Notes under the pieces: generated by a model
Seen by the model: the letters and a program-made list of their open reading frames with translations, nothing else
Told to the model about the DNA's origin: nothing
Databases searched by the model: none
Shown here: positions 3,445 to 44,286 of the stretch, one piece after another
How positions within the stretch are numbered: the stretch's first letter is position 1
How the letters are laid out: every line of letters begins with the position of its first letter
Translations under genes and position numbers: made by a program
Source of the DNA: Tubulanus polymorphus
Taxonomy: Eukaryota; Animalia; Nemertea
Length of the DNA stretch: 64,000 nucleotides
Reading direction: 5' to 3'
NCBI RefSeq assembly: GCF_964204645.1
Contig: NC_134029.1
Coordinates: 22,748,950-22,812,949, forward strand

Positions 3445-4383
3445 ATGAGTAGTGCAAGCAAGAATATTTACTATTCAGAAAAATACACTGATGATGAAAA
3501 TGAATACAGGTAAAAATTGAAATCTCGCTCTGCCTGCAGTCGCAGACAGACTACTACTGTCCCCCTCTGTCTGTGTCTAATTTTTCCGAGCCTTCTCTAT
3601 TATTTTTTTCAAAGTTCTCAATTCTCCGGATTTGCATTATAAATAATGATTATTTCAGGCATGTTCATCTTCCAAAAGAAATCTCGAAACTTGTACCGAA
3701 AGATCGACTGATGTCTGAGAATGAATGGCGAAAAATCGGAATCCAACAAAGTCATGGATGGATCCACTACATGCATCATAAACCTGGTAATGTCCATAAG
3801 AAACTTCGAGACGACGTTGGACGCCATAATTCAGTCGCTTTATAATTTCTTGCCTGCAGTGATGTACCTGATAAAACATGATTTTTGGTCCATTTGACAC
3901 TGCGAACATACTCTTTACATTGGATCGAGATTCAACTTGAGATAACTTTTTGGCAATCCGTCAATACAGTTCGAAATGGATGGTAAAATCTTTACATAGA
4001 CTGTGCTGGTTATTTGAAATCTTCATTAGGTAATGCGTACAGTAGACTCCCCCAATTCGGATCTAATTGACTCAGATTACTGATCAACACCATCTTTTGA
4101 AATGTTTTTTGTGACACTATAGGGCGTATACGAAATACATTACATCCGATTCGTATATCACTCTCAAGTCGGGCACATTTTTTTGTCCCTCAACTCTGAC
4201 TTGAGCAAAGTCCGCTGTACTACTTAACTACCTTATGACAAACCAACATCCACTCAAACAAGTTATACAATATCCGTAATGTCTTTTGACCGTTTCCTAA
4301 TCTCTTTCTTTTGCGCATTTTCAGAACCGAACGTTGTGCTATTCCGCAGACCGCTGTCAAACACTCAAAATCAAATGCGATAA
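3445..4383 (+). CDS. CKS1: Cyclin-dependent kinases regulatory subunit (Cks1/Suc1); exons 3445-3509, 3659-3786, 4325-4383
   Basis: Spliced translation is [80 protein letters not shown] box lies at ~3318. Confidence 0.95.
4040..4217. mobile_element. Degenerate Tc1/pogo-type MITE in CKS1 intron 2
   Basis: TA|CAGTAGACT ... AGTCCGCTG|TA: imperfect CAGT-starting TIRs flanked by TA. Confidence 0.5.
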
Positions 4384-5701
4384 TAACGATATGAAACCGT
4401 CTGGAAATTTGAGTGAGTCAAAGCAGCTTGGATTCTGTGATCAAAGTAGAGGCCTGTTTATGGACCGTTAATAGTTTTGGTGCGCTTATACGACTCGAGA
4501 CTACCTCGCCTTTAGTTGTCAGTTTGTGTTTAGTCGTAATTATTGTGCTGGGTGATGGATTTTTAATTATCGATTAGATCTTCTGTTCATGGAGGAATTT
4601 TTTTAATTTCACACACACAAGGCCTGTGCGTTTTTGTTTTGGTTTAAGCTAATGTAATCCGCTGTATCTCGTTAACTTGTTTACATGAAACTGATTTAAC
4701 TGAATGGAAGTTGATCTCTATAGCGTTGACATCGTCAGGATTCTCTGCCAGTGTTGTCCGTTTGTGTTGTATGACTGATGGATTTTTGTATATATGGAAT
4801 ATTGATGTATGAAACATGGACTATGATAATTGGAGTATGTATTGGGTTCGATATTAACTCCCGAGACTTTTCTTGTGTAGAGTCATGATACGACTTGTTT
4901 CATTTTATACACTTTGTCAAAATAAATGTCTGTATATTTGAACTATTTTATTGAAGTTTCTTCATTTTAGATTCAGTTTTATCATCTGTATTGATTAGTA
5001 CCGGGTGTAATACTCCCTCTGTACTGCAGCGCAAGTAGTATAGACTTCATCACCGGTCACACGACCATGTATTTCTGCATACAGTAAACGTGACCGTTGA
5101 AATTTAGGATCAAAGGTACCGACTTAATTGGAGAATAAATATGTTCTGTCAGGACAAGGGTGAGGTTTACTTCGTAATACTGACAGGTCAAGGGAAAATC
5201 ACATTCAGCCAACCTGCGTCATATCGTGGACATGTATAAACTAGTTATCAGTCTGATTACTCTCAAGATTGAACGATACGAGCTGGTACAGTTCATCAGA
5301 TGGTGCACTAAGGACAAATGCCGTCGAGCGTCTACAGCTGGGGTTTCTCATCATTTCTAACATTCGTAACGTCACCATTCTCCGCCTGCTGGCTAACCTT
5401 TCAGCAGATTGAGCAGTCCATCAAATTGAGCTGTATCTCTTAGTAACCTTTGGTATCATATTCTACATACAGTATTTTAAATTCCATAACTCCTTTTCCA
5501 AGTTAAGCCCTAACCTCATGTATCACAGGCAACAATTCAATCATTCTCATCTGGCTTTTGGTCTATGCAGAGCCTGTTGTAAGTCTGAATTCACCAATCA
5601 CTGCATGACCACAAAAATCAACGAACATAAAATGTCAATTTGAAGGGATATTTATTTTCCATTTGATAAGATTTAAACACACATTATGTTTGGTGCAGTG
5701 C

Positions 5702-8432
5702 TTATTTTTTGCCTCCCTTTCCCTTCTTGGTTGGCTCTGCCTTCTTCGCCGTCTTTCCCTTCTTGGCTGCCCTTTTGGCGGCAGCACTTTTCTTCTTTGG
5801 GGGTTTTTCAGTTGGAGCGGCCTGAAAATATTCCAGAAATCATTATTAATGTTAATTCAACATCGGCCTCACGATTGGACCCAACTCATTTAGGCTTATC
5901 CACTTTTCCCAGATTCCCTGAGTTGCTGCGTTATTATAACGTCAAACTTGTAACACAAAATTCCACGAATGAATCTGCCATGGATTAATGCAGAAATTTC
6001 TTGGTTCAAAATATTCTATTTTTCATGTATAGCGCTTAAGAAGATGTGTCATCAACGAAAATAGCATATGTGAATTCCCCAAGTTTATAGGTCCGCTCTA
6101 CCCTGACATTACATAATGATTTATTGACAATCAAAACTGTTAAATTATTATCGAATATGTGTCGGGCAGAATGAACATGACACTTACACCACGTTTCTTC
6201 ATGATCTCCAATTGTCTGTTCTTGCGTTGTCGTTCCTGAGCGAGAATCGCGTGTCGTTTCTGAACAGACGCGTACGGATTCAATCTGATCATCGTTCTGA
6301 TGTTCTTCAACGGATTCTTCTTCAGAACCTTTCTCTGAACGCGAGACCTGAAATTGATCACGATACAAAATTAAATACAATTCACTTAATTAACATATTT
6401 TTCTCTTTCAACGTATTCCCCCTTACAGATCAGGGAATCCAAATATCTGATATTTCCTCAACCAACTAAAATACTGATTCACTCAAAAAATATGCCGAGC
6501 TGTTTTGTAAGAGGCTATCTGTGCAACGAGACACCAAATATTCATATTCCCTGCCAGAATCCTGATCCCTAAGGAATACCAAACTAATATCTTACTTTCT
6601 CGGTCGAAGGGCGCTCTTGATTTCGTCACTCTTCAACAATCGAGCCAAATCGCTGTTTGTCATTTTCGGCATCGGTAAGTTGTAGTCGGTCTTTTCCTTC
6701 GAGGGTGTTTTCCAGGTTCCGTAAAGCTTGTCGAGACGTTTAAAAGCGGACTCGGTCCAGATACAAAATCGTCCGACGTGACCACCGGGGGCAATTTTTA
6801 AAAGATTCAAACGATTGACATTGATTAAAGTAATACCTGAAAAAAAAAGAAGATGATTATATTTAATTTGAAATTCATCATCATTAGGTCAAAAATATAG
6901 ATAAGTTTAATCTTAACTAATTCATAAATTCCATCCCGACCTCTGGGTACACAAATATTGCTTAACAGCCTGGATGGAACCTTCATATAAACTGAGGTGA
7001 GGGAATAGATCTTATAACACATTCATCAGTATCATATTTTCTTGCACTAACCTGGGATATTACGGAAAGCTCGGCAGATTCCATTGTCCTGGTTATAGAT
7101 AACAAGAGGACCTCGTTTCTGGATGCGGCGACGATTCCTCATTTTACCTTTACCGGCACGGAATCGTTTCGATTTGTAAACCTTTTCGATATCGGCCCAC
7201 GCCTTGAAACTCTTCAGAACTTTTACGGCCTCTTTCGTTCGCTTGATTTCTTCGACTTTGTCGGCGATGACCAACGGAACTTCGGGAGTCTCTTCAATTC
7301 GGTGACCTATAACCAGACGAGGGAACACGCGATATAATATCAATTGGACATAGGAGTGAGTCCAGGGGGACTTAACTTGTACAAGTCCATCAAATTTGCC
7401 TAAGATCTATCCATCTATTAGTCCCATTGATAAGATTTCAATTTATTTTATTTGACCATACACCCTTGAAAATCATAACCCAAGTATGGGACAATTGGAT
7501 CCTGGGCCCATACTATTAATCCTACTGAAGTGAACTCAACAGTAAAATCAAACCAAGAACATTCAAACTCTGATGTCTAGACTCAATATGTTCAGATATA
7601 TACCTTTAGACATGACGAGAGCTGGGATACCAGTAGCAGCGATTGCCGAGCACATGGCGTATCTCCTCTGGTTGATGTTGATACGTCTGTGCCAGCGTCT
7701 GTAAGTCTTAGTTGGAGCGAACATACGTCCTCCTCGGCACATGTTACCGAACGCACCCTGACCAGAACGATGAGTACCACCACCTCGTACACGAGGAATA
7801 CGAGCTACAGCTCGTCCTGTACCCCATGACTCAGCAGATGTCTGGTGACCTATAAACAGAACATTCATCAATGTTTACAACAATTTTCACTTCTTCGACA
7901 ATAATAAAATTCTAAATATCATTACAGGTTACTTCTCAATTAATTTACAATCTTCTTACAGTTGATCTTATTTCATTGAGACATCATCTTGTTGACTTAC
8001 CGGCATCTTTGCTGACAGCGTATGGTTGTCTGGTGTTCTTCAACATTTGGAAATGAACGAAGTTGACGATATCCGGCCTGATCGGGGCTCGGAATACTGC
8101 CGGCAACATAATGTTACTGTCGGTAGCTTCATTTTTATCACTATACACCGATATCAATGGACGGGCAGCCTGAAATAGTAATTCAAGAAGGGGATGCTTA
8201 GTTATAAAGTGATGGTCGAACTTACTCAGGCGGCCCGGGCAGCAAGCAAGTGCCGCCTTTAACATCAACTCAAGCCGCGCCGCCGGACCAGAAAATAAAA
8301 TCGCACCAAAAACTACTCAAAATAAACGATGTCTCCATCAACCCATACATCAATCATTTACTCATCACACAATTAAACATTTCAACTAATTTATAAGAAT
8401 AATTACGAACTAATTAAGGCAGAAATTACCAT
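5702..8432 (-). CDS. RPL4: 60S ribosomal protein L4 (uL4); exons 8432-8430 (ATG only), 8169-8001, 7849-7604, 7306-7052, 6836-6596, 6347-6188, 5821-5702
   Basis: Translation includes [10 protein letters not shown]...[18 protein letters not shown]...[49 protein letters not shown]...[23 protein letters not shown] and a Lys/Ala-rich tail. All introns are GT-AG and in phase. AATAAA lies at 5656-5651. Confidence 0.97.
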
Positions 8433-8472
8433 TTTATTTGGAGAATTATTTTAGCGTGACCGCTTCTACACG

Positions 8473-8481
8473 TGTCCGACC
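8473..8481. repeat. Left 9-bp target-site duplication (TGTCCGACC) of the MULE
   Basis: The identical 9-mer occurs at 20822-20830, each copy directly abutting a TIR. Confidence 0.95.
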
Positions 8482-8525
8482 GCAAAAGGTTGAAAGCCTG
8501 TTTTGGTCGATGGCTAGTGACGTCA
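8482..8525. repeat. Left terminal inverted repeat (44 bp) containing the CRE palindrome TGACGTCA
   Basis: GCAAAAGGTTGAAAGCCTGTTTTGGTCGATGGCTAGTGACGTCA. The reverse complement of 20778-20821 differs only at TGGC(T/G)AG. Confidence 0.95.
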
Positions 8526-8644
8526 TCAAGATCGCCTTTTTGTTACTCCCACAGCTAAACAACTCACTTTTAACGGTTAACCGCTGAATTTGAATTTTCT
8601 GTCAAGTGTATTCTTGCTGGCTGTTGATTAAAAGATTGTGAATC

Positions 8645-11600
8645 ATGTTTTCCGAACGTGTTAAGCTTGTCTCCGGACCAGTTGGTGGGAATATTGGTTT
8701 GAAAAAAGAGGTAGATTGCAAGATTATAAAAAACTCACTGGGTAACACTGGTGAACGCCGCGAGGATCGTACACGGTGGTGCAGGCGAGGCGTCGCGACC
8801 GCGCGGCGGCAGGGCTTTTTAATTTTGGCTTTTGCCAGTTTTGGAGTCTTGTTATTGCCACCACGGCCACGTTACCACCACACTCACATTGTCGCTAGGC
8901 CTACTGTACTGCCACTACTTTACTTGCTTGCTACTTACTCGGCTAAATTAATTTGTCTTCATCCACGCTTACTTCCCCCCTCCCCCCCCCCATGTTAACA
9001 AGTAATTTCTGCCAACCGAACCACCAGTCGCAGTAGCCGTAGGCAGTATACTATAGTGCAGTAGTGGGTACCCAGTGGCATGCCATTGCCATGCCACTGG
9101 GTATAGGCCTATGTTGCCCGTACACAGTCACCACCTACTAATGTCTATTTATTAATTGATGAGACCTGTTTTTCTTGGATATTTTGCTTACTTTTTGGGG
9201 TACATACCTCATTTATGTCTTAACAGAATGCCAAAAATCGCGGACAACAACTGAATATCCGATATATTTCCAGTTCTGTACCATTTAGATGGATTGGCAA
9301 AAAGACTCCTTAAGTCCAGTTGAATGAGAGAGAAAATCCTCCATTTTGTGAAATTTCTTGAATTTTTACATTGTCACCATGCCTACGAAATTAAGTTATA
9401 TTTCTTGTGGGGTCTCAACAACTAAATCAGGGTGGCGTAGGCATGGTAACAATGTTCAAATCCAAGAAATTTGACAAAATGGAGGATTTTCTCTCTCATT
9501 CAACTGGACTTAAGGAGTCTTTTTGCCAATCCATCTAATTGGTACAGAACTGGAAATATATCGGATATTCAGTTGTTGTCCGCGATTTTTGGCATTCTGT
9601 TAAGACATAAATGAGGTATGTACCCAAAAAAGTAAGCAAAATATCCAAGAAAAACAGGTCTCATCAATTAATAAATAGACATTAGGCCTTAAATATTCCA
9701 ACAACCATTCCAAATCCAGCAACAAAAAATAAACAATAAATTTTAAGGCCTCGAAACAGAAGAATGGTAGTTCCCTGTATTCAGAGTCAATGAAAATGTA
9801 TTTCTTGTTGCAGATAGATAGCCTAACCAATTTCAGGATAAGTACTTTTCATTCCTTTATTTATATACGTAGCCTAACTGTTTAATCCTGGCCCTGGCCA
9901 CTGAGGGTGTATGCATTAGGTCTGGTCCCAGTTTCACTGAGCTAGTTAGCCAACAATTAAGCTGAGAAATTTTGTTAATTTGATTTAGAGGAATCTTTTA
10001 ATTTAGTGCCTGATGTTAGGCCTTCCACAGCCTGGTAGAGGTGGTTTAGGTGAACAAGTTAGTCTTCACACTGCAGGACTTTTAGGTGAAGGTGAAACTG
10101 GCCCTTGTTTATGCATAGGCTACTGTGTGTGCACGCTTATCTTTATGCTTATTCAATTAGAATACCCATGTAGCTACCAAATAAGCACCGCTTCAGAGGA
10201 TTTTAGAAATTTTCACTTCAATAACACTGTGTTCTATTTTTGGGCACTAGCTACTATTATGCACAATTTTTTCAATCAATTCTATCACATTGATATACAT
10301 ATATGTGTCACTTCTTTTGCATGTAGTAGGGTCTTACAGTAACCAGTGTGCTCTCTCACACCTCCCTGTGATATTGGCCTGAGACTGACAAATAATCTTT
10401 TTTGTAGCGTATTGGTCTCGTAGCAGACAGCATTTTAAAGTATGCTGGGCTAGATGGTGTAGGCTTATTTGAATGGACAAGGATCGTGTGCCCCGGAGGA
10501 ACCATTGAAACATTGATGGAAGGTAATTTCTCGGTTCAGTACTGATTTATATTGTTCATTTTCATTGGGTTACTGATTAGTTGTATATTACAGAATTGAA
10601 AAAGGTGAAGATGCTGAATGTGGAACAACTAATCGTCCATGTTGGAACAAATAATATGACGTGTGATGTCCCGCTTGAGATTGTTCTGCGAAGACACGTT
10701 GAATTAATTCGATTGTTGCTCTATAAATGTACTGGGACCATCATTGTACCAGCTCTTTTTCCTCGATGTGATGAGTAAGTATCAAGAATAGATTTTTCTT
10801 GAAGTACTATATTTATGATCGATGTAATGATTTTTAAATTTCTTTCTTTTTTAAAGTTTCGATGCTGACACAAAAATATTTCATTACAATGAAATGCTGC
10901 ACCGCGAATGCTTTACACTTGGTGTAAAGTTCGTTGATTTTCACTTCTCAAGAGATCTCCTTTCACCGTAAGTAATCGTTTAATTTTAATAAGCCCAGTA
11001 GGTTATGTGCATTTTTTCGCGATTTAAACTAACTTGTTTTTTTCTAAATTTTGTGATCTAGGACTGACTTGTTACACCCCAGCCGTAAGGGAAATCAGTT
11101 CATAAATAACAGGATAATGGAACTACTGCTATTGAAAAATGAAGATGAAATGTACGTAGAATTGCATTATTTTATCCAATTACCAGGTATGCAAACTACA
11201 TAAATTTTATGATTGTACTGGAAATAATGAATGATTCTTAATCAGGTGCCCTCAATACTTTCCATATGAGATTGAAAAGATGCAAAGAAGTAGAGCAGTC
11301 CATCGACGAAAGGTAATCATTTAGCATTGATATCCTAGAAAATGAATGATTTGCAATTAGTTTTTATAACTTGAATACGAAACCACTTTATTCAAAATCC
11401 TTGCATTGAATTAATGAATCATATTGATAGCTGATAGCAAAAAACAAATTGAAGGATGATCAAGCAAGAGCATGGGATGATTCAACAATAGTGGTAAAGT
11501 TGTTTTCCTAAGTGATTTGTACGTGATTTATCTTTATAAAGTTAGATATATTTTAACAGTTTTTTGTATCCTTCAATCCAGTATAGCAGTTTTGACGTTG

Positions 11601-14600
11601 CGCATCATACAAGGAAACAATTCTGTTGTGAAGATCAAAGAGCCTTTTTCACATTCGACCAGGTACATATCATCTCAAGAACTTATGATTTAATATTAGT
11701 TTGGTCACTTTTATTTCACAATTACCTAAAGGCTGTGCATGCACAAATCTGTCTTTTTTTTCCAGTACATGACTAAAATTGATGTGGCTGGTGTTGCTAT
11801 TTGTTTAAAGCCTCAATTATTTACTCCTTTTTATCAGACTAAGAACGTGAGTAATATGTTTCTCGAAATGAAATTATAGAAATTCATTGGTATTGGTATG
11901 ATTTATGCTGTAAAGCTTTGTTTTCATATTCAGGGATGCTACAATAGAAGTTGTCACAATACTAAAAGATTTAACAGAAAAAGGAAGTCAGTGGAACATG
12001 TAAGTTTGATGCCCTTTCTGCGAGACGCGGGTTCATTTTTGTTATTTTTGCTTAGATGTTGAAGCAAAAACAGATTAATGTGCTCTTCCACATTAGGTTA
12101 TTCATCCACAGACGGATCCTGCTGACTCGACATGTTTTTGCGGAGTTGAATTCACCAATTGGAAAGATCTTCTAGACCATGTTAGTTTAAACCATACTGA
12201 AATGTAAGTACAACATAATTCAATTAATTTAGTACCTACAAATCTAAATGACTTAATGCAAATGACTCAGAGATACCCATGTTTTATGTTAGGCCTATAT
12301 GGGTAATTTCATACTCTATCTATTCATATGTCTAAAAAAAGTGAGTTGATAATGTGTATTTCAGGCGGACAATGGAGGAAGAAGGAAAGGACGCGGCTTG
12401 TGACAATTTCTCGGAAGGAACGATAGAGGAAGCAGAAAAGATGCAGGAAGATAGTTTGAAAGAAAGGATAGAAAGATTAAAGATGCAGGAAGATAGCTGG
12501 ATGGAAAACAAAAAACAGCTAAGTATCACAGGTGGTGGAGGTATCGAACCAATCATAATTGATGATAGTGATGAGAATGATTCTGATGATGAACATGTAT
12601 GTAGAAGAAATTTTAGTTACAATCCAACAGAAATGTGCCTCAATGACTATCAGTTTTTGAAAATTCCTCCTGTTATGCCATCAAAGGTCACGTCATTCAG
12701 AATTTGTGACATGTCTAATTCATGTCATTTGGCTGATGATGCCCCCACTATGCCCCACAAAAATCAGTTGGAGGACATAAAAGCACAGATGCAGTCAAGG
12801 ATTGTCCGTGACCCTTCCATTAATATCCATGTGAGACTCGATACAGGCTGCTATTCTATTGATCAGATTAATAGGTTTCTTTTCTTACATTATGCTAAAA
12901 CCAAACAACAAGATCTTTTTGCCATGAATCTTTGGGTAAATAGTAAGCCTTTAAGCCCCACTGATTCAGTCGATTGGGAACAGATTCAAGCATTTTCAAA
13001 TATGCTCTTTTCCTTAAAACCCTCTCAACAATTTCCAGTTGGTAATAATAATAGCGTATCTGTATCAGAACTTCAGACGATGACTAATCAAAAATGGTTT
13101 GAAGGATCTGTGTTAAATGCTTTTGCATCTATGATAAATGAACAGTACTGTAATATTCATGCATTTATGATGCCACTTACATTTGATGCTAAGAAATATG
13201 TTTCAAATTTATATAAAAGATTCGGTCCTAATCCACTCATAAGTTGTGATAAACTAATTTTTTTCCTGCATGTTGGCACCCAAAACGATTTCGTATTTCT
13301 AAATTCTTATGGACATGTTGTTGCCAATCATTATGCACTAGCAGTTTTTTACCCAAAAAGTAACAAACTGTGTTATGCTGATACACTAGCATGGGATTGT
13401 CCAAGGGAATTTAAAAATCATTTAAGATCTGTTTTGAAAGGTTTGAATTGCCCTGATCCTGTTTATATCCACCTCCATGATCCTCATTTTGTTACTGAAA
13501 ATTCAGTGCATGTATGTAGTAATAATTGTACTAGTTATTACCCACTCCAATCATGTTCATCTGTCTGTGGCCCTGCTACATTAATTGGTGCTTGCATTGC
13601 AACCTATTATGAAAAGGATATTTCAAGTGTATTTTCATCTCCCAATGAATTATCTTATCTTAAGAACATTTCTAACTATTCTGATTTTGTTAGATTGATA
13701 TTGATTAATTGGCTTATGAAACATCTAATTGATATTACTCAACTCTTCTCAAAGTCATCTCAACCTACTGCTAATAGTACTACTTTCTCTAAGATATCAC
13801 GATTATCTCGCAGACAGAGACATAAACGATCAACTGAGTCAAATAATACACTAGCTAGTTCTGAATTAAAGATGTCAGACTCTTATATTGCCCCTAAAAA
13901 AAGCAAATCAGTCTTAACTACAGCCAAATCTAAATCTACACCAATTTTGAATAATGAATCAACACTTGAATCTACACCAATTTCGAATTATGAATCTGCA
14001 GCAATTTTGACTAATGAATCAACACCAATTTCGAATAGTGAATCTGCACCAATTTTGACTAATGAATCAACACCTGAATCAACACCAATTTCGAATAGTG
14101 AATCTGCACCAATTTTGACTAATGAATCTACACCAATTTCGAATAGTGAATCTGCACCAATTTTGACTATTAAATCTACACCTGAATCTACACCAATTTC
14201 GAATAATGAATCTACACCTGAATCTACATCCTCAATTTTGAATCTTCAATCCTCATTAACTCTAAATTCAGCTGAACCATTAACTTCCCATATTAATGGT
14301 TCTAAAACTACTATCTCCCATCGCATCAGGAGAGGAAAGCATTATCTTGAAGTTGCTTTTCATTCAACTGGCAGTAAGACGAAGTATAAAAGTTTTCATT
14401 GTACAGACCAAGGTACAAATGACCAGGTAGCCATTGACACTATCAAGAAATACCTCAACAACCAGAATCCACTTAGTGATGAATGGGTTGAAAATGGGGA
14501 AGTAATGACTGGTGCTGACACAAAATATTATTTCGATAGATTCACTTTTGATTTTACAAAAACAGTTCGTCTGCATAAGAATGTGCGGCCTTCATTTGTT

Positions 14601-17600
14601 GGTAACCAGACAACGATGAAAGCTTCCTTAACATTAAAAAAGAATTGGCAAACCCATAGATTAGATAATAAATTTGAATTTATTGAGCCAATTGTTGAGG
14701 ATACTTCTCAATTTGTGGCTGCAGAAATGCTCATAAAATGTTCGTCAAAGTCTTCAGTTTGTAAATCATCATGTGGATATTATCTTTCAAAGTTGAATAT
14801 GTCCAGTAACATCACTAATTGTCCCTCATGTCAAATTGACGTTGTTTTAAATGATAAACAATGTATTCATTGCTCCATTACCATGTCTAACAAATGGAGG
14901 AAAAATGCTGATGGTGAAACACTTTGTTCCAACTGTTACAACTATAAGCTGAAGAATAAACGTGATCGTCCTGTGAAGTTAAGGCAGCAGTTTGAGCCAA
15001 AAAAATTAATTCACCCTCATTTTATGTGTTATTGGGCAACGAAACTTGTATTATTTAGTACTGATTTATCCAAGTGGAGAATCTTCAGCAAACCACTTAA
15101 TGGTCAATATCATGACAATATTCCTTTACAAATTAAAAAGCGACCTAATTTATCTACTAGAGATAGATGGGATGAAAATAGAGTCATGATGAAAGCCACA
15201 GCAATGAAGGTTCTTTCTGCCACCAATGCTCACAATAACCTTCATGTATCAAATGTAAATGATGGCGCCGGTCATGACCATACCCTAGATCAAATTTCAA
15301 ATAGATTGAAATATATTGATAAATCTTCGATAAAATTACATATGAAATCTCAAGACGAAATACCTATTCTAAGTTCTGATTGGAGAAATACTGAAAAATT
15401 ATTAGAGGGTAACTATGAATCTGTCCTTTTATTTCAACGAGGGGATGCCACACTCAAACGTAATTATCACATTATTCTCTCTGATCCTCGTTCTCTGGAA
15501 CATTTATCCAACTTTGGACAATCTGTCATTGGTATTGACGTGAAACATGATTTCAATTCGTGGAAATTCAAAACTTCATTTGTAACTTTTGCAGACAACA
15601 AAAATGAAGGACGTATTGCTGCTGCATCAATTAGTAGTGATGAAGGGGGGCTACTCATGCAACTACCATCCAGTTAGTTCTAGCCAATACACCATGTAAA
15701 GACGAAAAATGTAATCATCCATCTGAATTCTATATATTTAATGATGGCAATGGTTTTTTCAGAATCAAGCCATGTTCATCAACATCTAGATTTTGTCCTT
15801 TTGTACAACATGATAAAGATGCAAGTCTAAAGCAAGGAGCATCTGACAATAATCTTAAATCAGTACTATGTAATTTTCATGTCCTGCAGTGTATTCGTCG
15901 CTTCATGAATGAAAATCAAGAACTTCGCTTATTTTGCAAGCCTCTAGAAACTGGTTTCAAATGCATTATGAGATCATGGGATGCTTCCTCTAGAACTGAT
16001 ATAGCCAATTCATTTATTAGTTTTATTGAGAATGATATTTCTTTAGACCTTATGTCGCAAGATACAAAAACATTATTTATTGATTACCTAAAGAAGAATT
16101 GGTTTAATTCCCAAATTTGGTCTGATGCATTCAATGCTGAATCAATTTATCAGTCAGACCAATCTAACAGAAATAACCCTTTGCTATTAACTGATAATAT
16201 TACTGAGCGCAAATTCAAACAAATAGATGATGTCTACTTAAGTGGACACCTAAATAAACTGATATCATCTTTTGTACGATTACTGTTTGAAAATGTTTTT
16301 AATGATGAGATCAAAGCGACAAATATGAACAATCTCCAATTTAAGCAACTTGACCAACGAGTTAAGAATATACGTCACCTTGAAAAGATAGAAAAGTGTT
16401 GCAAAAGAGCCTTTGATTTATTACAGAATAATGAGATTTTAAAATATGATGAAGAAACTAATTGGTTTGTTGTGAAGAGTTCTTCACGAAAGAACTTAAA
16501 TAGGTTAGAAGATAATGATAATTTTTTCAATGGTGATACTCAATATACATTCAATCAGCTTGATGTTTTAGAAGAAAGATTCCCCGATAAAGTATCAATA
16601 TCCGAGGAACATTCATATGACATTTCAAAAAAATGCCGAAGGTACATAGGAAATTTAGATTCAATATCCAGTCGTATCTTATTCAATTACGTTATTACAA
16701 TCGTTCCTGAAAATTGTCTTTCATACGTAGATGGTAATTGCCATTTAATCAATTTGAAACTAGGTATATGTACTTGTGAAGCTTTTATAATGATTGGACA
16801 ACCATATTTTTGCAAACATCTTTTTGCCTGTTTTGCCCAAAAAAACAATATAACCACAACGAAGGCTTTAATTGATGCATATAAATTCCACATTGTGGAG
16901 CCTCTGCCAACTTACAATTTTACTCGACAAAATATTTCTGTTTCATCTACCCTCATTGATAAGTTAAAAGATCATTCCCACATTGCTAGCTCGAATGATA
17001 TCAATGCTGCTCGGAAAGGGCACATTCTAAGTATTTTACATAATGAAAGCCACTGTGGAATTAAGTTAATAAGCGGACGACCTGCCAAACGACAACCTCA
17101 CAATATGGCTCATAGGCGTGCTGAGGGTCCAATCAAGGACAATCAGGTTGCCATAAACCTTCCTGAACTTGAAGTGATAGACCCTTACTGCCCTAAGGTT
17201 ACAATGCCTAAAGATGCTGAGAATGCAAGACACGGAGGGCGAAAGATAATTAGACCTGCTAACAGAGGTGTATCCTTTTCTGCTATGGTTGAAAATGCTG
17301 CTATCAAACTAGGTAAAAAAGCTAAAATATCAGAAATTGAAACCATAGACTCCACTGATCCAGATCCTGGCAATGATATCGAATTTTCAGCAGATATTTT
17401 AAGTCAGAATAAATCATCCTTACCAAAAAAATCAAAAGATACCAAACCAAAAGATATTAAGTCAATACCAGTTGTTAAAAATGACTCGAAGTCTGTTTTA
17501 TTTGAAAAAAGTATTGTCTGTTCCTTTTGTATTAAAGACAAAATAAATCCTCCATATCTTTGTTCATGTCGCAGGGAACTAGATAGGCACATATCCACTT

Positions 17601-18100
17601 CTCATTCATCTTTGAAACCTATCTCATGTGCTATTTGTTGGGCAGATGGGGTTATTAATTCATATGCAAGTGAAACATTCCTTCAAAAGCACATTCGTAT
17701 TGAACATAATCATCATAAGAAAAAATCTATTGTAATCGATTATAATAATAGAGATGATTATCTCAACAGTTCTCCTATTACAGAAATCAATAATTCCAAT
17801 TCTGAAAAAGAATTAGAAATTCTTATAGATCAACCTGGAAATGCAGGCCTCCAAAACCTAGCAAAATTGAAACTAGATAATCTTTTGTCATCAAAAGTTG
17901 AAAAAACCCCTTCTCAGTTAGTTGCTGAAACCTGCCCTGTCTGCCACAAAAACTGCAATGCTAATCCTAAGAAAAAGTCCACATTCTCAATTGAATGTGA
18001 TAATTGCCATAGATGGTATCATTGGAAATGTGCTCCAATCAATGAGGCTCCTCCTGAACATATCAGGTGGTTTTGTTTTCATTGTGACCCGATTTCCTAA
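8645..18100 (+). CDS. Giant multi-domain MULE transposase of about 2250 aa (SGNH hydrolase, C2H2, Ulp1/C48 protease, repeats, GATA finger, DDE, SWIM, 2x C2H2, PHD); exons 8645-8710 (tentative), 10408-10522, 10594-10774, 10857-10967, 11062-11151, 11246-11312, 11431-11493, 11582-11662, 11766-11846, 11934-11999, 12097-12203, 12365-18100 with a -1 shift at the G6 run 15645-15650
   Basis: All eleven GT-AG junctions are phase-compatible with no stops. Motifs: LVADS/PGG/HVGTNN/DLLHP (SGNH); KWFEGSVLN/NHYAL/YADTL/QSCSSVCG (Ulp1); CIHC-x17-CSNC..RDRP (GATA); GIDVKH, QHDKD, LCNFHV, TDNITE (MULE catalytic core); CTC...CKH (SWIM); CPVC...CDNCHRWYHWKC...WFCFHC (PHD). The first exon is the least certain. 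Confidence 0.82.
9138..9685. mobile_element. Fold-back element/MITE with ~250-bp inverted arms and a 48-bp spacer, nested in intron 1 of the transposase gene
   Basis: 9138-9387 is the near-perfect reverse complement of 9436-9685. The ends can be read as TA|ATGTC...GACAT|TA. Confidence 0.85.
13933..14240 (+). repeat. Coding minisatellite (ESTPISNSESAPILTN-like units) between the Ulp1 and GATA/DDE regions
   Basis: Repeated in-frame GAATC(A/T)ACACCAATTTCGAAT and GAATCTGCACCAATTTTGACTAAT units. Confidence 0.9.
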
Positions 18101-18877
18101 ATAGTTTGTATAGAATATTATTGATCGGGTTTCGAATGAATTCCTGACGTTAGAAATATTTTCATTTCCCATGGTGAACGTAGAAGCCTATAATGACCGT
18201 CACTTAGTCACCTATATATTTACTCGATTATATATAAGGTTAAGAAGCGATGTATATGCACTGGTGTTTATAGTGCTCTATTTCAGGTTTTTTCTTTCAG
18301 GAAAATATATTTTGTGAATAGATTACCGCTTGATTTTTTATGTTACAGGTTACTGCAAAATCATCAGTTATTGTGATGCGTGCCGATGTCTCTGGATGAT
18401 TCTGACCATGTCTAGAACTTCAACATCCTTGACTTATCATCAATTGGCAGCAGTATACATACATGCATGTTCAGAGAGTGTATGAAGAGAGTGTATGGAC
18501 ACATCAACCTCGGTTCAAGGCTGTCCCTGATTAAATTGTATAATCCATATATAATATATATAGATTGGTCCCATTTTAACTTACTCAACTGCTTGAATGT
18601 CTTGTTTGTTATTCGTAAATTTTCACTTATTCATTGATTGTTTCTGTAGAATTTTATATGTGATATATAAACGTGGAAACCAGGGCCCATTGCACTATGA
18701 AAGACACTTGACATTTTTTTGGGACAGATCTTTCTATATGTTTATGTCCTCGAGGCATCTGAAGTTAAGAAAATTCCCTTTGAAAACTGGAAATGACATA
18801 ATGAAATAAGTTGTGGAATGTTTACAAATGACAAAATGAATGAATTTTGCATTCCTAAGGCCCTATATATTTACTGC

Positions 18878-19745
18878 AGTTAGTCCTGTATGTCTTTTTT
18901 ATCGCAATTTACTGTGGTTTATTCCTGTTTGTCCTGTATGTCTTTGTGATCGCGATCGCAATTCATTGGTTGCATTGTTTACTGTTAGTCCTGTATGTCT
19001 ATCGCAATTAAGTTAGTCCTGTATGTCCTGTATGTCTTAGTTAATCGCAATTCATTGGTTGTTGAATTGTCTACTGTTAGTCCTGTATGTCCTGTGGTTT
19101 AGTCCTGTATGTCTTAGTTAATCGCAATTCGTTGGTTGAATTGTCTACTGTTAATCCTGTATGTCCTGTATGTCTATCGCAATTAAGTTAGTCCTGTATT
19201 TCTTAAATAATCGCAATTCATTGGTTAATGAATTGTCTACTGTTAGTCCTGTATGTCCTGTGGTTTTGTCCTGTATGTCTTTGTGATCGCGATCGCAATT
19301 CATTGGTTGCATTGTTTACTATTAGTCCTGTATGTCTATCGCAATTAAGTTAGTCCTGTATGTCCTGTATGTCTTAGTTAATCGCAATTCATTGGTTGTT
19401 GAATTGTCTACTGTTAGTCCTGTATGTCCTGTGGTTTAGTCCTGTATGTCTTAGTTAATCGCAATTCGTTGGTTGAATTGTCTACTGTTAATCCTGTATG
19501 TCCTGTATGTCTATCGCAATTAAGTTAGTCCTGTTTGTCCTGTATGTCTTAGCTACGAGCAATTATCAAACTTGATAATTGCTCGTAGGTCTTAGTTAAT
19601 CGCAATTCATTGGTTGCATGGTTTACTGTTAAAGCTGTATGTTCTGTATCTCTATCGCAATTTCATTGGTTGCATTGTTTACTGTTAAAGCTGTATGTTC
19701 TGTATCTCTATCGCAATTTCATTGGTTGAATTGTTAACAGTCCTC
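18878..19745. repeat. Compound satellite array inside the MULE (modules GTCCTGTATGTC, ATCGCAATT, CATTGGTTG) with a ~337-bp higher-order duplication
   Basis: Dozens of module copies. GTCCTGTATGTCTTTGTGATCGCGATCGCAATT occurs at 18931 and 19268. Confidence 0.9.
19546..19595. mobile_element. 36-bp perfect hairpin (17-bp arms) flanked by a 7-bp direct repeat; probable transposon excision footprint
   Basis: GTCTTAG|CTACGAGCAATTATCAA-AC-TTGATAATTGCTCGTAG|GTCTTAG. Sister satellite units have a single GTCTTAG. Confidence 0.7.
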
Positions 19746-19885
19746 TGTATGTACATGTAAAAATAATTAAGGTTCTGACAACAGGTTTGTAAAGTAATCA
19801 GCTATCTGTTTTGTCTATCGTTGCTTAAATTGTTAACTGTTGTTTTAGAGTTCTGTATGTCTTTGTCGATCATTTTGTCTGCACT

Positions 19886-20118
19886 CAGGGGCGGATCCAG
19901 CATTTTGAAGGCAAATGAAAGCAACAACAGATGGCTGTAAGCCATTCCAGAGCAAGCACCGATAACGCGAAGACCCTCCCTAAAAATTTTTTGGAAAAAT
20001 AGATGCAAGCAGGTGCATTCTGAGCATTACTTAATAGAAAGATTTCATTCGGTTTTTACTCAGTAACGCATAGATTTGCGGCTACATCGGTAAAAATAGA
20101 GGGGTGGAACCGCCACTG
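19886..20118. mobile_element. Degenerate non-autonomous element with CAGGGGCGGATCC-type termini, nested in the MULE
   Basis: Imperfect inverted ends CAGGGGCGGATCC ... GGAACCGCCACTG; no clear TSD. Confidence 0.45.
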
Positions 20119-20777
20119 AATAGCTATTGTTTTGTGTAGGATTGTATCTGTGAATTAAGTAAAGTTACTTACTCCAGTCTGATGTTATTGCTTATTGCTC
20201 GTATTTTATTGTTTTAAGTGTGCGAATACTTTTCTTAGATTTATGGAGATCAGGATGACGAGGGTTCGATTTGAACCAACAAATAAACAAAAACATTCAA
20301 ACCTCAAATTAATCCGTTTACTTGTCTTTATTTTTGGGGAACATTTTTTTACCTAGTTCAGATTTGATAACACAGTAGTCGCTTGTTCCAAAGCGATGTG
20401 CCGTTGAAGACAGACATGAAGGTCTTTGCCGACAGCGATGCTATCCAGGATTTCAAAGGATGTGAAGAAGGTGCATCTTCGACAACCATAGTTTGCAGTT
20501 TTAACAATTTAAAACAATAATAGTTTCATTAAACAACTTAAAATTTAAAGATTTAGTGGACTTACTGTTTAACCAGGGCAGGGATTTCTCGCAACCGTAC
20601 ATGATATATACATACACTAGCAGTAAATACAATGTACTTCTAACCCTTATAAAACTTAAACTATTTTTAGTTATTTTACAATTATTAAACGGCAACGTTG
20701 AAATGCGATGTGCGCTCAGAGCGGCCGTAGTGATTTTGGCGTATTGTGGGATTCGAACCGCTCGGAATTTGTACTAG

Positions 20778-20821
20778 TGACGTCACTCGCCATCGACCAA
20801 AACAGGCTTTCAACCTTTTGC
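20778..20821. repeat. Right terminal inverted repeat (44 bp)
   Basis: TGACGTCACTCGCCATCGACCAAAACAGGCTTTCAACCTTTTGC, followed directly by the TSD TGTCCGACC (20822-20830). Confidence 0.95.
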
Positions 20822-20831
20822 TGTCCGACCT

Positions 20832-20846
20832 GAAAAAGAGAGAAAG
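20832..20846 (-). promoter_or_regulatory. Native RPL4 TCT initiator / 5'TOP tract, displaced 12.3 kb from the gene
   Basis: Minus strand reads CTTTCTCTCTTTTTC, 1 nt from the TSD. Removing the element and one TSD copy places it ~50 nt upstream of the RPL4 ATG, as expected for a ribosomal protein gene. A GC box (GGGCGG) lies at ~20861. Confidence 0.75.
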
Positions 20847-21360
20847 TAGATCGACGAGGTGGGCGGTGAACAGGGTCTGAGAAATAGTTCAAAATTTCAC
20901 AGCAATAACAGCTATATTTCGTTTATACTTCTTATTCCAAGCATATTCTATTTGTGAGATAGGAAATTTATGGACATTCCAATTATATTTTATATACATG
21001 AGATAAGAACTTAACATGCCAATTATCTTTCCAATTAGCGTAGGGATATATTAATTGAAGAGGGCAGCACCAGCTGGGAATATAAGGACTTACTATCATT
21101 AACTGGCGGGCCGCTACAACGGGTCCACCGGAATGTTACTCCTAAGACTGCATGAAAATCCTTTTATATGAATGAAGACGAAATATAAGTCCATATATAG
21201 TCTATATAAAATTTATTTTATTGAAAATATATAAATTATCTTCTATTGTTCTTAGTTTACTGGACGGACAAAGTCTAGGTGCTGCACCAGGCTCGTAGTC
21301 AGGCTTCATTGGCAGTTCCATGAGATGCAACAGTTGGCAGATTACTCATCCAAAAATCAA

Positions 21361-24349
21361 TTACTTTGATCCTGCTACTGGCTTGCTCCGACTAACTATC
21401 GATGAAAACCTTGGCCGGTCAGACAGAGGAGCTTTTGATGACATTCTATCTTTCGCCGCAAGATTAGGGTTACTGATAAAAAAACAAGACAGATATTTCA
21501 AAGTTAAAATCAGTCCATCATTTACAGTAGTATCTCAGTGAATTAGTCGAATATCTGATGAGAAATATACATACGCCAATAAGACATCAATGTTTGCCTG
21601 GGTCTCTTTAGTTTTCTTATGATTACTACCATACATCATGGTTTGAATAGAGAGACACTGGAAAGAATTTAAGATGACAATGATTTCAGAGTTAAATATA
21701 CGAGGCAGGTTTCGATTCAAGGAATTCCTGTTTAGGAATACTGATTCCGTATCACAAACTCTCTACCATAAAGAGATATTAGGTTTACAGATTACGCTAT
21801 GCCAGAATAAGTAAGAGCATATTCTGGTTGAAACTAACACGCTGGATGAGAAATCCAGAATCTGTAGAGACCAATCAAAACCTGCCATAATGACGTACGT
21901 GTACTTATTTGACTCCTTACAATTATTCATCATTACCTTCCTGAAAGCCTTTAAAGCTAGTTCCATATTTCCGTTCGAAAGATGAATGGACGCGATTAGT
22001 TTATTTGTATCGGCAGTCTCGTCTGAAAATTCTCCAAATACTTCTTGTTTTGCTGGTATAGTCGATTTCAACAATGATATCGAATCCTAAAGAAACAAGC
22101 ATCGTCATCATTACTGGAGCATTTTCCATATCAATTCACCTTTAACGAAAAATCTCTTAAAATATTACCGTTTTTCTATCCGTCCTGATCATAAGTTTTG
22201 CCAGTTCATCGTGAATTCCAATTGTTTTTTCGTGATTCGGTCCGTAATGCAGTTGATACATAGCCAAACATTCGTTCAAATAACTTTCAGCAGAGGCTGT
22301 AACACAATGTTTAAAAACCTCAGGCTAGAGCCAGTTTTATAGACAGTATTGGGTCTAACTAAATCATTGTCAATTGAGTTAAAATATTTAACAGGGTGAG
22401 ATTAACACCCTTCTATAAAATAGGTTTCATATGGGAATCAGTGAAGAACTCATTATATCTTAATACTAACCTTCTCCATGGGGATCAGCTGTGTTCGAAT
22501 AAGCCGATGCTAAGGCTTTAGCTGTTGATGCTAGTTCTACACTATTAGTCTTGTAACTGTAATAAATAAACGCATATGGAATAAGACTTGAACATTGAAG
22601 AAAGTACGGGTAACTCTATGGTTGTACTTACTGAGCAGACGCAATTGAATGACCTTGTAGATACATTTCAATCGCATGTTCCTGGTTGGCATGTTTTCCT
22701 TTAGATTGTTCTACGTAAAAATATGTGTTAAAGAAAACCAAGAGAGTCGCCGTCATTAAAAGTGTAAATTTATCAAATCTATAGATAAAAGGATATTTGT
22801 CCCATTCCTTGGTAAATCGGTATCAGATCGAGACTATCGGCTCCTTTAGATTTAGTGATTAAATCTTTCGCGTGTTCGTAGTAAGTCATAGCTCCAGCTT
22901 GTTTCTGCTGTCGCAAATTCACTCTAAATGGAAAAATGGAATATGGCAGATGTTACATGATGATCAGTCATGTTTACCGGCGTCTGTAAATTTCGAGAAT
23001 GAAACAAACTTTGCTAGAGCGATGGCAATTTTGATATCCCACACGCGAGAATCTTCAACTGAGACAGATGGAGATTTTAATCTTTGTTTGGAGATTGAAT
23101 CGGCTTTCAGGAATGCTTGTTCGGCTTCATTTTGCGTACAGAGAAATAAAATTAAGGATACTGACATCTAATAACTATAATCTGGATGAGTCTAATGTTA
23201 CTCAGTCGATGGAAAGTTTTCAACCGATTAAAAGGATATTTTTTCAACACCGAACAAGATCGTCCCATTGTGTAATATATGTCCATAAAAGTCGATAACA
23301 TGGCAGCTTTATCAGAATCCGATTGTGATGTATGCAGACCTGACATCATTATATTCTTGGCTGTCTCAGCGTGTTGGTATGCCTGTGGGGCATAACCTAA
23401 GATAAAGAAATGTTTATAGAGTAAAATAAGGCAGGATTACCGGGTATCTGGTATGACGGGTAATGCCGGAACAAGGCAAGCATCGGACCGACCACAGATA
23501 GATTTCCAAGCTGGGGTCCCCCGCAGAAATTCATTTTAAAAATTCTATGAATTCTGACTGCTTCTAGATTCGGTATCCTCTCACTAGTCACTAGTGTACT
23601 ACAGTCACGCGTGCAACAAGACGTATCTGTCAGTTTACGGCTGAAGGTCGAAAGTATAATCAATTTTTGCCCCAGTGGTTCCGACACCCCTGTACGAGGA
23701 GGAAAGGACTTTTCCATAACGGTGCAAACCTTTCAAATCAAAGTATCCTTGCGCTAAATTGCTGTAAGCCTGAGCATGTTTCCAATGTTTATCACCGTAC
23801 ACAATACGTGTTAGCGCTACGCATCGAGTTAACTGACGAATTGCTTCATCATTCTGAAATAAAGCGACAACAATATAAAAATAGTCCAGATCACATTCAT
23901 CAAAACTGTCAAGTTTCTTTCTTTTTTTTCTATTTACCTTTTCATTGTTTGTCAACTCTTTAACATCTCTTTCTGCTAATTTCAGTAGTTTTTCTGGTGG
24001 TGTCATGTCGATATGCCGCAGGCCGTTTCTCTTCTTCTTCTTTTTAGTCGTTTTAATTTTTTTCTTAGTTTTCGGGGCTCGATTCTCCTCATCGCTGATC
24101 TCGTTGTTTTCTGAGTTTTCATTTTCATTTAAATCCTCCTCGATTTCATCTTCTTCTTCCTCAAATTCATCAGAGCTGAAATACACGATTTGATTTGTAG
24201 CATTATTATTGGGCACCACTAACTAACAACAACCATTATCATCAAGTTCAAGTTCATATTCTTCCCGGATAGAATCAAACAAATATCATTACTCACTAAT
24301 CACCCCCATATCCTGGGACATCAACTATTGATAAAGCAGGGTCGTCCAT
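21361..24349 (-). CDS. TTC23: Tetratricopeptide repeat protein 23-like, multi-exon
   Basis: AIRQLTRCVALTRIVYGDKHWKHAQAYSNLAQGYFDLKG resembles the TTC23 N-terminal TPR. First exon MDDPALSIVDVPGYGGD splices in phase, and the last exon ends GSK* at 21361. AATAAA lies at ~21212-21222. Confidence 0.82.

Positions 24350-36234: not shown

Positions 36235-44286
<8,052 letters not shown>

Follow-up and report, generated by a model that had tools for sequence, protein, structure and literature searches.

The 64-kb window analysed here, i.e. the whole stretch of 64,000 nucleotides taken from contig NC_134029.1 of the nemertean Tubulanus polymorphus, contains a transposable element of 12,340 bp (8482-20821; all positions are those of the window) that splits exon 1 of the ribosomal protein gene RPL4 (uL4). 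The element is flanked by two copies of a 9-bp direct repeat, TGTCCGACC, at 8473-8481 and 20822-20830, which form its target-site duplication (TSD), and is bounded by 44-bp terminal inverted repeats (TIRs) at 8482-8525 and 20778-20821. The two TIRs differ at one base (43/44 identical), their similarity ends after base 44, and no further TIR copy was found in the window. Read outward into RPL4 on the minus strand, the left TIR consists of TGACGTCA (8525-8518), a spacer, and a pyrimidine-rich end (8496-8482). The same palindrome, which we take to be a CRE/ATF site, also closes the right TIR (plus strand, 20778-20785), and five such sites occur in the 64 kb. The insertion as a whole is confirmed: a transposon of about 12.3 kb had been placed between the RPL4 initiator tract and the ATG by a first-pass annotation of this DNA, and its TIRs, TSD, coordinates and terminal palindrome all check out. 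The empty site is a reconstruction, the window holding no empty copy. The target site (8473-8481) is itself near-palindromic (GTC-C-GAC), and two further TGACGTCA sites, at 40969 and 44934, are each followed by a C, the second of them lying near a CCAAT-like site.

Beyond the insertion, RPL4 extends over 5702-8481 on the minus strand, as delineated by its annotation and by RNA-like contigs. The remainder of exon 1 (8481-8430) ends in the ATG (8432-8430), which is followed by a GT donor and intron 1 (8429-8170), and the later exons lead to a stop codon at 5704-5702, leaving a minus-strand leader of 49 nt between the element and the ATG. The gene is apparently single-copy: its annotated protein (P0033, 397 aa), which starts at this ATG, is alone in its protein cluster, and the best 120 of 1,903 matches include no other uL4 from T. 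polymorphus, although a diverged paralogue may sit lower down. On the other side of the element, 20831-21222 (minus strand) would by its position and consensus matches be the displaced native RPL4 promoter. This region includes a 15-nt pyrimidine tract (20846-20832) and a GC-box-like CCGCCC (20866-20861), and is bounded at 21222-21217 by an AATAAA that is likely the end of an upstream gene on the same strand encoding a TPR protein. In fly and human, a TCT initiator marks almost every ribosomal protein gene; its consensus is YYC+1TTTYY or YC+1TYTYY (PMC5580651), which the native tract matches at 8/8 positions at C20838 and at 7/7 at three Cs. The best native start, C20838, stands 57 nt from the RPL4 ATG in the reconstructed empty site, which places the element at +9 to +17 of the 5' untranslated region (UTR). 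From its present position, the native promoter would drive transcription into the element, on the strand opposite to the transposase gene.

This tract might instead be a splice or trans-splice acceptor, in which case the element would have displaced no start site at all. On the minus strand, it is indeed a pyrimidine tract followed by CAG-G, and a contig from one RNA-like run (X5, see below) begins at 8480, the first base past the equivalent AG. We nevertheless regard such a role as highly improbable: the tract fits TCT at 8/8 positions, a GC-box-like site lies 23-28 nt upstream of it, only about 390 bp separate it from the AATAAA of the previous gene, TCT is the rule for ribosomal protein genes in fly and human (PMC5580651), the X5 contig carries no leader letters, and no nemertean spliced-leader paper was found in the literature searched.

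The TIR had also been described as rebuilding a look-alike initiator at almost the native distance from the ATG, and the underlying figures hold upon recomputation. The native tract and the TIR tract (8496-8482) match at 11 of 15 positions, at one of seven offsets tried, and the candidate replacement, C8488, lies 56 nt from the ATG, compared to 57 nt for C20838. By chance, a match of at least 11/15 occurs for 0.06% of random 15-mers of the window at a fixed offset and 0.3% over five offsets, but for 8% of 15-mers as pyrimidine-rich as the TIR end. The resemblance thus appears real but modest, and it concerns a single site picked post hoc. As an initiator, the TIR tract is weaker than had been claimed, and its proposed role as a working TCT element is not borne out: it fails the TCT consensus, with best fits of 6/8 and 6/7 (at C8488) compared to 8/8 for the native tract, and the chance of a 6/8 fit with a C at +1 is 6% for a 3-position slot and 19% for an 11-position window. 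Likewise, the run of pyrimidines past +1 is 6-14 nt in the native tract and 4-5 nt in the TIR, while a run of 4-5 marks the lower edge of the definition of a terminal oligopyrimidine (TOP) motif, such that a start in the TIR would give a minimal TOP only. The leader from 8525 down contains no upstream ATG, hence a TIR-led mRNA would encode full RPL4.

Eight runs contain the RPL4 stretch, none of which is recorded as RNA, and four of them (X1, X2, X5 and X7) were aligned to 7400-9100. Based on skipped introns, X2, X5 and X7 were classed as RNA-like, with RPL4 introns 1 and 2 absent from RNA-like contigs, while X1 covers the introns and is DNA-like. Record 15 of X2, a contig of 121 nt with a mean depth of 6,881, links exons 2 and 1, proceeds through the TSD to 8509 with unbroken cover of 8429-8509, and carries 28 nt of the left TIR. 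In the same run, the intron bins (7856-7969 and 8198-8425) have zero depth, and bin 8540-8596 has a depth that corresponds to that of record 16 alone from 8568 (4,218 vs 4,219.5), so that 8540-8567 is uncovered. Given the empty introns and a bin explained by record 16, neither genomic DNA nor read-through from the element accounts for the TIR letters, and a spliced contig that carries them, with no cover of 8540-8567 or of the introns, suggests that some RPL4 RNA starts in or at the TIR. Hence, some mature RPL4 RNA likely starts between 8482 and 8539; these contigs, each with one mean depth, yield neither the start base nor the share of TIR-led mRNA. An RPL4 start at a C within 8484-8496, as initially predicted, is not borne out: the contig reaches 8509, which suggests that some RNA starts upstream of the TIR tract. 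Taken together, we consider it reasonably probable that a young Mutator-like element (MULE) landed 8 bases behind the likely RPL4 start, and that its TIR acts as a minimal outward promoter for at least some of the RPL4 mRNA that this allele produces.

Several observations weigh against this interpretation. All RNA evidence comes from contigs, which provide no start, strand or level, and at 8509 the contig may stop where the assembly graph branches towards another copy of the TIR. Minia3 simplification clips short dead-end tips, and a native leader of 8-16 nt could for this reason have been lost in assembly, leaving a minor TIR-led form visible. Logan contigs do undergo Minia3 simplification (10.1101/2024.07.30.605881). 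The TIR junction was seen in one of the three RNA-like runs aligned (X2 only): the X5 contig halts at 8480 with no letters beyond, and exon 1 is uncovered in X7. X5 belongs to another study and its alleles differ at five listed places, and gaps in coverage are generally uninformative here, X1 having zero depth at 9053-9100 and X7 over exon 1. Further, none of the X1 pieces listed crosses the left junction (another 105 pieces and 14 loose ends lie beyond these). Finally, as regards targeting, the PHD finger of the transposase has a Ser at the position of Met882 in the TAF3 cage, and is absent from four of eight aligned relatives.

A contig of the DNA-like run bears on the state of the insertion. 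Record 1 of X1, 3,189 nt long at a depth of 32, matches 7400-8481 without differences and then continues for 1,557 nt off the TIR, for which an element-free allele is the simplest reading. With an allele in this run that leaves the window at the TSD, the insertion is probably polymorphic. X1 is possibly the source sample of the window and would then not be independent, and the end of the empty allele expected for this record, around 22387, is neither confirmed nor denied by the window. With such an allele present, the insertion could be recent and heterozygous, and its allele weak or near-null, most RPL4 mRNA coming from the element-free allele and TIR-led RNA being leakage. The departure of X1 record 1 after 8481 fits this scenario, as do the degenerate TCT fit of the TIR and the fact that the mean depth of a contig says nothing of the depth at the junction. 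However, the X2 contig crosses 8481/8482 unbroken and no branch with a native leader survived, while X2 lists zero allelic differences over the RPL4 exons at a 2% share, and we therefore hold this scenario to be unlikely. An assembly artefact, in which a repeat was mis-joined into RPL4, would explain the missing X1 junction contig and could be in line with a frameshift in a G run of the transposase gene, which may be a sequencing error. Yet the 9-bp duplication is exact at both ends and the left junction is also found in a run under another sample label, which leaves such an artefact barely credible.

Other contigs with TIR letters point to additional copies. In X2, a loose end at 8481 leads into at least 255 letters of foreign flank, and one at 8525 into letters identical to the right-end interior of the element. 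The foreign-flank TIR contig has a depth of about 1,290 (back-calculated from bins), approximately 9-fold that of an element-interior contig (145), which hints at another abundant RNA that is fused to a TIR. GTC recurs in the flank of this second junction, 2-4 places ahead of the TIR; from two sites, this is a faint suggestion of a target motif. Record 16 of X2 (2,143 nt, depth 145) consists of element sequence from 8568 fused to 1,529 foreign letters with no AG at the joint, and is probably a rearranged, transcribed copy located elsewhere. In X1, other TIR copies over 8481-8533 show 3-4 differences in 43-53 nt and lead to other interiors; these would be relatives with the same end that are older or non-autonomous.

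The element encodes a multi-exon transposase (10411-18100, plus strand) with a GDSL/SGNH-like N-terminus, a His-Asp-Cys region which we presume from its motifs to be Ulp1-like, a GATA finger, a D-D-CxxH-E core, a SWIM-like finger and a C-terminal PHD finger. The GDSL/SGNH-like domain (Pfam E 2.5e-6) and the GATA finger were both below the Pfam cutoff, and the Ulp1-like region had no Pfam match and no PDB sequence match. In this copy, a G run near 15645-15650 carries a one-base frameshift that shortens the protein: P0016, 100% identical over 1103 aa of the main exon, corresponds to this copy, and the second transposase open reading frame (ORF) is 100% identical to a T. polymorphus protein over the 411 residues searched. 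The transposase cluster has 11 members at 10 named loci, including an intact 2,196-aa transposase at three loci (two distinct sequences with three differing positions, >99% identical) and truncated versions at six. With near-identical sister loci, the element is a real transposon, as first proposed, and its family is young and multi-copy; the depth of X1 at the left end of the element (666-753, vs 32 for the flank) fits a multi-copy family, without being a copy number. Relatives were found in Patella caerulea, Oratosquilla, Scylla and Portunus, with 81 representatives at E 0.001. In Patella caerulea, which has no fewer than 8 loci of nearly full length, the same transposase (P0002-P0003, P0019-P0029) forms at least two young subfamilies, with some pairs >99% identical. 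The GDSL/SGNH-like small exons (10411-12204) are spliced onto the transposase in a longer isoform, and this part is all that several truncated loci retain.

Affiliation of the element to the MULE superfamily is based on its ends and its catalytic core. D, D, CxxH and E are conserved in all eight aligned proteins, and a CxxH past the second Asp is part of the MULE DDE signature. The element combines this core with TIRs at both ends and a TSD of 9 bp, within the 8-11 bp range of the superfamily (PMC6446971). The Pfam MULE domain itself had no match in the ORFs of the window or in eight close proteins, and sub-cutoff matches in two of 14 further proteins. A low-confidence structural model of the core (mean pLDDT 49.8) had the transposase of ISCth4 as its best match (E 9.4e-4), and IS256 and MULE transposases are related. 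By its anatomy, the element is Mutator-type and Rehavkus-like, sharing with Rehavkus a 9-bp TSD, a TIR length within 26-400 bp, a PHD finger and a minisatellite before the 3' TIR, with a size close to the 10,679 bp of Rehavkus-1_HR, a likeness by description (PMC6446971). It goes beyond Rehavkus in its GDSL-like, Ulp1-like, GATA and SWIM-like parts and in its nemertean, limpet and crustacean hosts (PMC6446971). A cysteine-protease-like region along with a PHD finger is also known from Ulp1-bearing Mutator elements of hydra, lancelet and plants, although the protease-like region is here N-terminal to the core (PMC2836005).

The PHD finger (17933-18085, plus strand) scored above the Pfam cutoff, and its best match among solved structures is the PHD of TAF3 (E 3.4e-9), followed, among 17 such matches, by CXXC1, BPTF, Alfin-like, Set3 and PHF2. 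In TAF3, a cage formed by D877, M882, W868 and W891 allows this domain to connect H3K4me3 with TFIID (PMC12238850), and M882A lowers binding more than 100-fold (PMC8246079). The transposase PHD retains W891 but has a Glu two residues ahead of the first Cys, the place which we read as that of W868, and with the Ser at position 882 it lacks part of the H3K4me3-reading cage (W868, M882, W891). In the Patella copies and in P0150, the residue two places ahead of the first Cys is still aromatic. A search for PHD homologues retrieved, from three candidates, only the family itself. At highly expressed genes, insertions of maize Mu and of the Drosophila P element concentrate around the start site, peaking no more than 50 bp from it, and the factor tethering them there is still open (PMC7337890). 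A transposase with its own TAF3-like PHD would be a candidate for such a tether, and we see start-site targeting by this domain as a lead drawn from sequence comparison.

We propose that a transposase supplied by an intact sister copy placed the element in open promoter chromatin, as for Mu and P, and that a CREB/ATF-type factor bound to TGACGTCA may now recruit RNA polymerase II to the pyrimidine-rich end of the TIR. Starts would probably be spread over 8482-8525, with those at C8488 or C8489 yielding a minimal TOP and the full reading frame, and the insertion allele probably segregates with the element-free one. The resemblance to a TCT initiator may help at RPL4 and need not have evolved for TCT genes. 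A stronger version, an evolved replacement, holds that the family aims at TCT or housekeeping starts and that its TIR end was shaped to restore TCT and TOP in either orientation. It would account for a landing 8 nt behind the best TCT start, a substitute C within 1 nt of the native distance, an 11/15 match expected at 0.3% by chance, a second abundant TIR-joined RNA, and a TAF3-like PHD kept in Tubulanus, Patella and P0150. Conversely, there is a single mapped site, chosen post hoc, 6/8 fits do arise by chance (6% of 3-position slots, 19% of 11-position windows), the TIR offers a TOP of only C+4 or C+5 vs C+6 to C+14, and the RNA extends 13 nt past the tract. TIR ends are also constrained by transposase binding, and overall such an evolved replacement seems to us improbable. 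Extended to the whole family, one could envision an animal lineage (nemertean, limpet, crustaceans) that relies on a TAF3-like PHD to insert a few bases behind the starts of genes with high expression. Its 44-bp end would be a complete housekeeping promoter in portable form, combining a CRE with a TCT-like start, and would, whichever way round it lies, provide the host gene with a new initiator along with a 5' TOP leader. We consider this joint proposition doubtful; if true, the element would sit harmlessly in essential single-copy genes.

The more conservative interpretation, a TIR acting as outward promoter at RPL4, has a close precedent in maize. Of 33 Mu alleles, 20 were reported to give outward transcripts, in either orientation; for 15 of these 20 the transcripts mapped wholly to the TIR, and expression was often near wild-type (10.1101/2023.06.05.543741). 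As in the element described here, Mu is a MULE with a 9-bp TSD inserted in a 5' UTR, and its host mRNA begins in the TIR, where either end serves, a situation with a likely counterpart at RPL4 (10.1101/2023.06.05.543741). The differences lie in the animal host, the TIR of 44 bp vs about 215 bp, the ribosomal protein target with a TCT/TOP start, and a TIR with a TGACGTCA palindrome and TCT-like end (10.1101/2023.06.05.543741). The notion of a promoter-replacing transposon in the first-pass annotation is therefore retained in part: the general strategy was already described for maize Mu, and what we report is a probable animal counterpart of a Mu outward-promoter allele, partly RNA-supported by a spliced contig with TIR letters, in an apparently single-copy ribosomal protein gene. 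As for Mu and P, the insertion lies only bases away from what is likely the start of a gene with high expression, although Mu and P targeting rests on thousands of new insertions, compared to one site here, and that report does not describe P as an initiator supplier, the function proposed here for the TIR (PMC7337890). In fission yeast, Tf1 insertion into promoters reduced expression of none of 32 genes, which parallels the absence of expression loss proposed here, but Tf1 is a long terminal repeat retrotransposon that inserts upstream of genes and has no TOP leader (PMC3553992). A 2026 preprint describes transposases as activators of their own copies (10.64898/2026.08.24.746577), and the terms "promoter", "PHD" and "GATA" are absent from a 2026 arthropod MULE survey (PMC13359780). 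We found no animal DNA transposon supplying a TCT or TOP start in the full-text literature searched, a coverage that leaves out subscription journals and Repbase. If the TIR does drive RPL4, the Mu strategy of landing at a start and supplying a promoter would also operate in animals, and in its most demanding setting: an apparently single-copy ribosomal protein gene that is very highly expressed and in which translational control, too, depends on the start sequence. The 44-bp end would be among the smallest natural promoter cassettes, and an allele pair that likely segregates, native TCT vs TIR start, would make the value of TCT/TOP testable in a wild animal.

Additional features were noted within the element and around it. 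A 548-bp internal fold-back (9138-9685), with 250-nt arms that are 97% complementary and a 48-nt loop, is possibly a nested element or miniature inverted-repeat transposable element, or could be a source of double-stranded RNA. The minisatellite preceding the right TIR by about 1 kb (18870-19740) has periods of 56, 74 and 166, and another (13933-14256; 12/24/108 nt) is in frame within the transposase, encoding Ser/Thr/Pro/Glu-rich repeats. Outside of this genome, a TIR pattern scan of metagenome contigs returned four candidate copies, all rejected as chance matches, as each agreed with only 20-26 of the 44 TIR bases and did not resemble the element, and transposase scans of viral and prokaryote contigs confirmed none of 72 and none of 42 candidates, respectively. 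No small nucleolar RNA was detected over 4500-22000 with Rfam, all six matches being below the gathering score. A head-to-head partner gene upstream of RPL4, as at the human locus, was considered and rejected, the upstream ORFs belonging to the same-strand TPR-protein gene (about 21200-24222, minus strand), which we take to resemble TTC23. RPL4 and this gene are part of a compact gene run (430-33000) that also includes SKI/SKOR-like (430-2118), CKS (3504-3845) and Nrap/NOL6-like genes.

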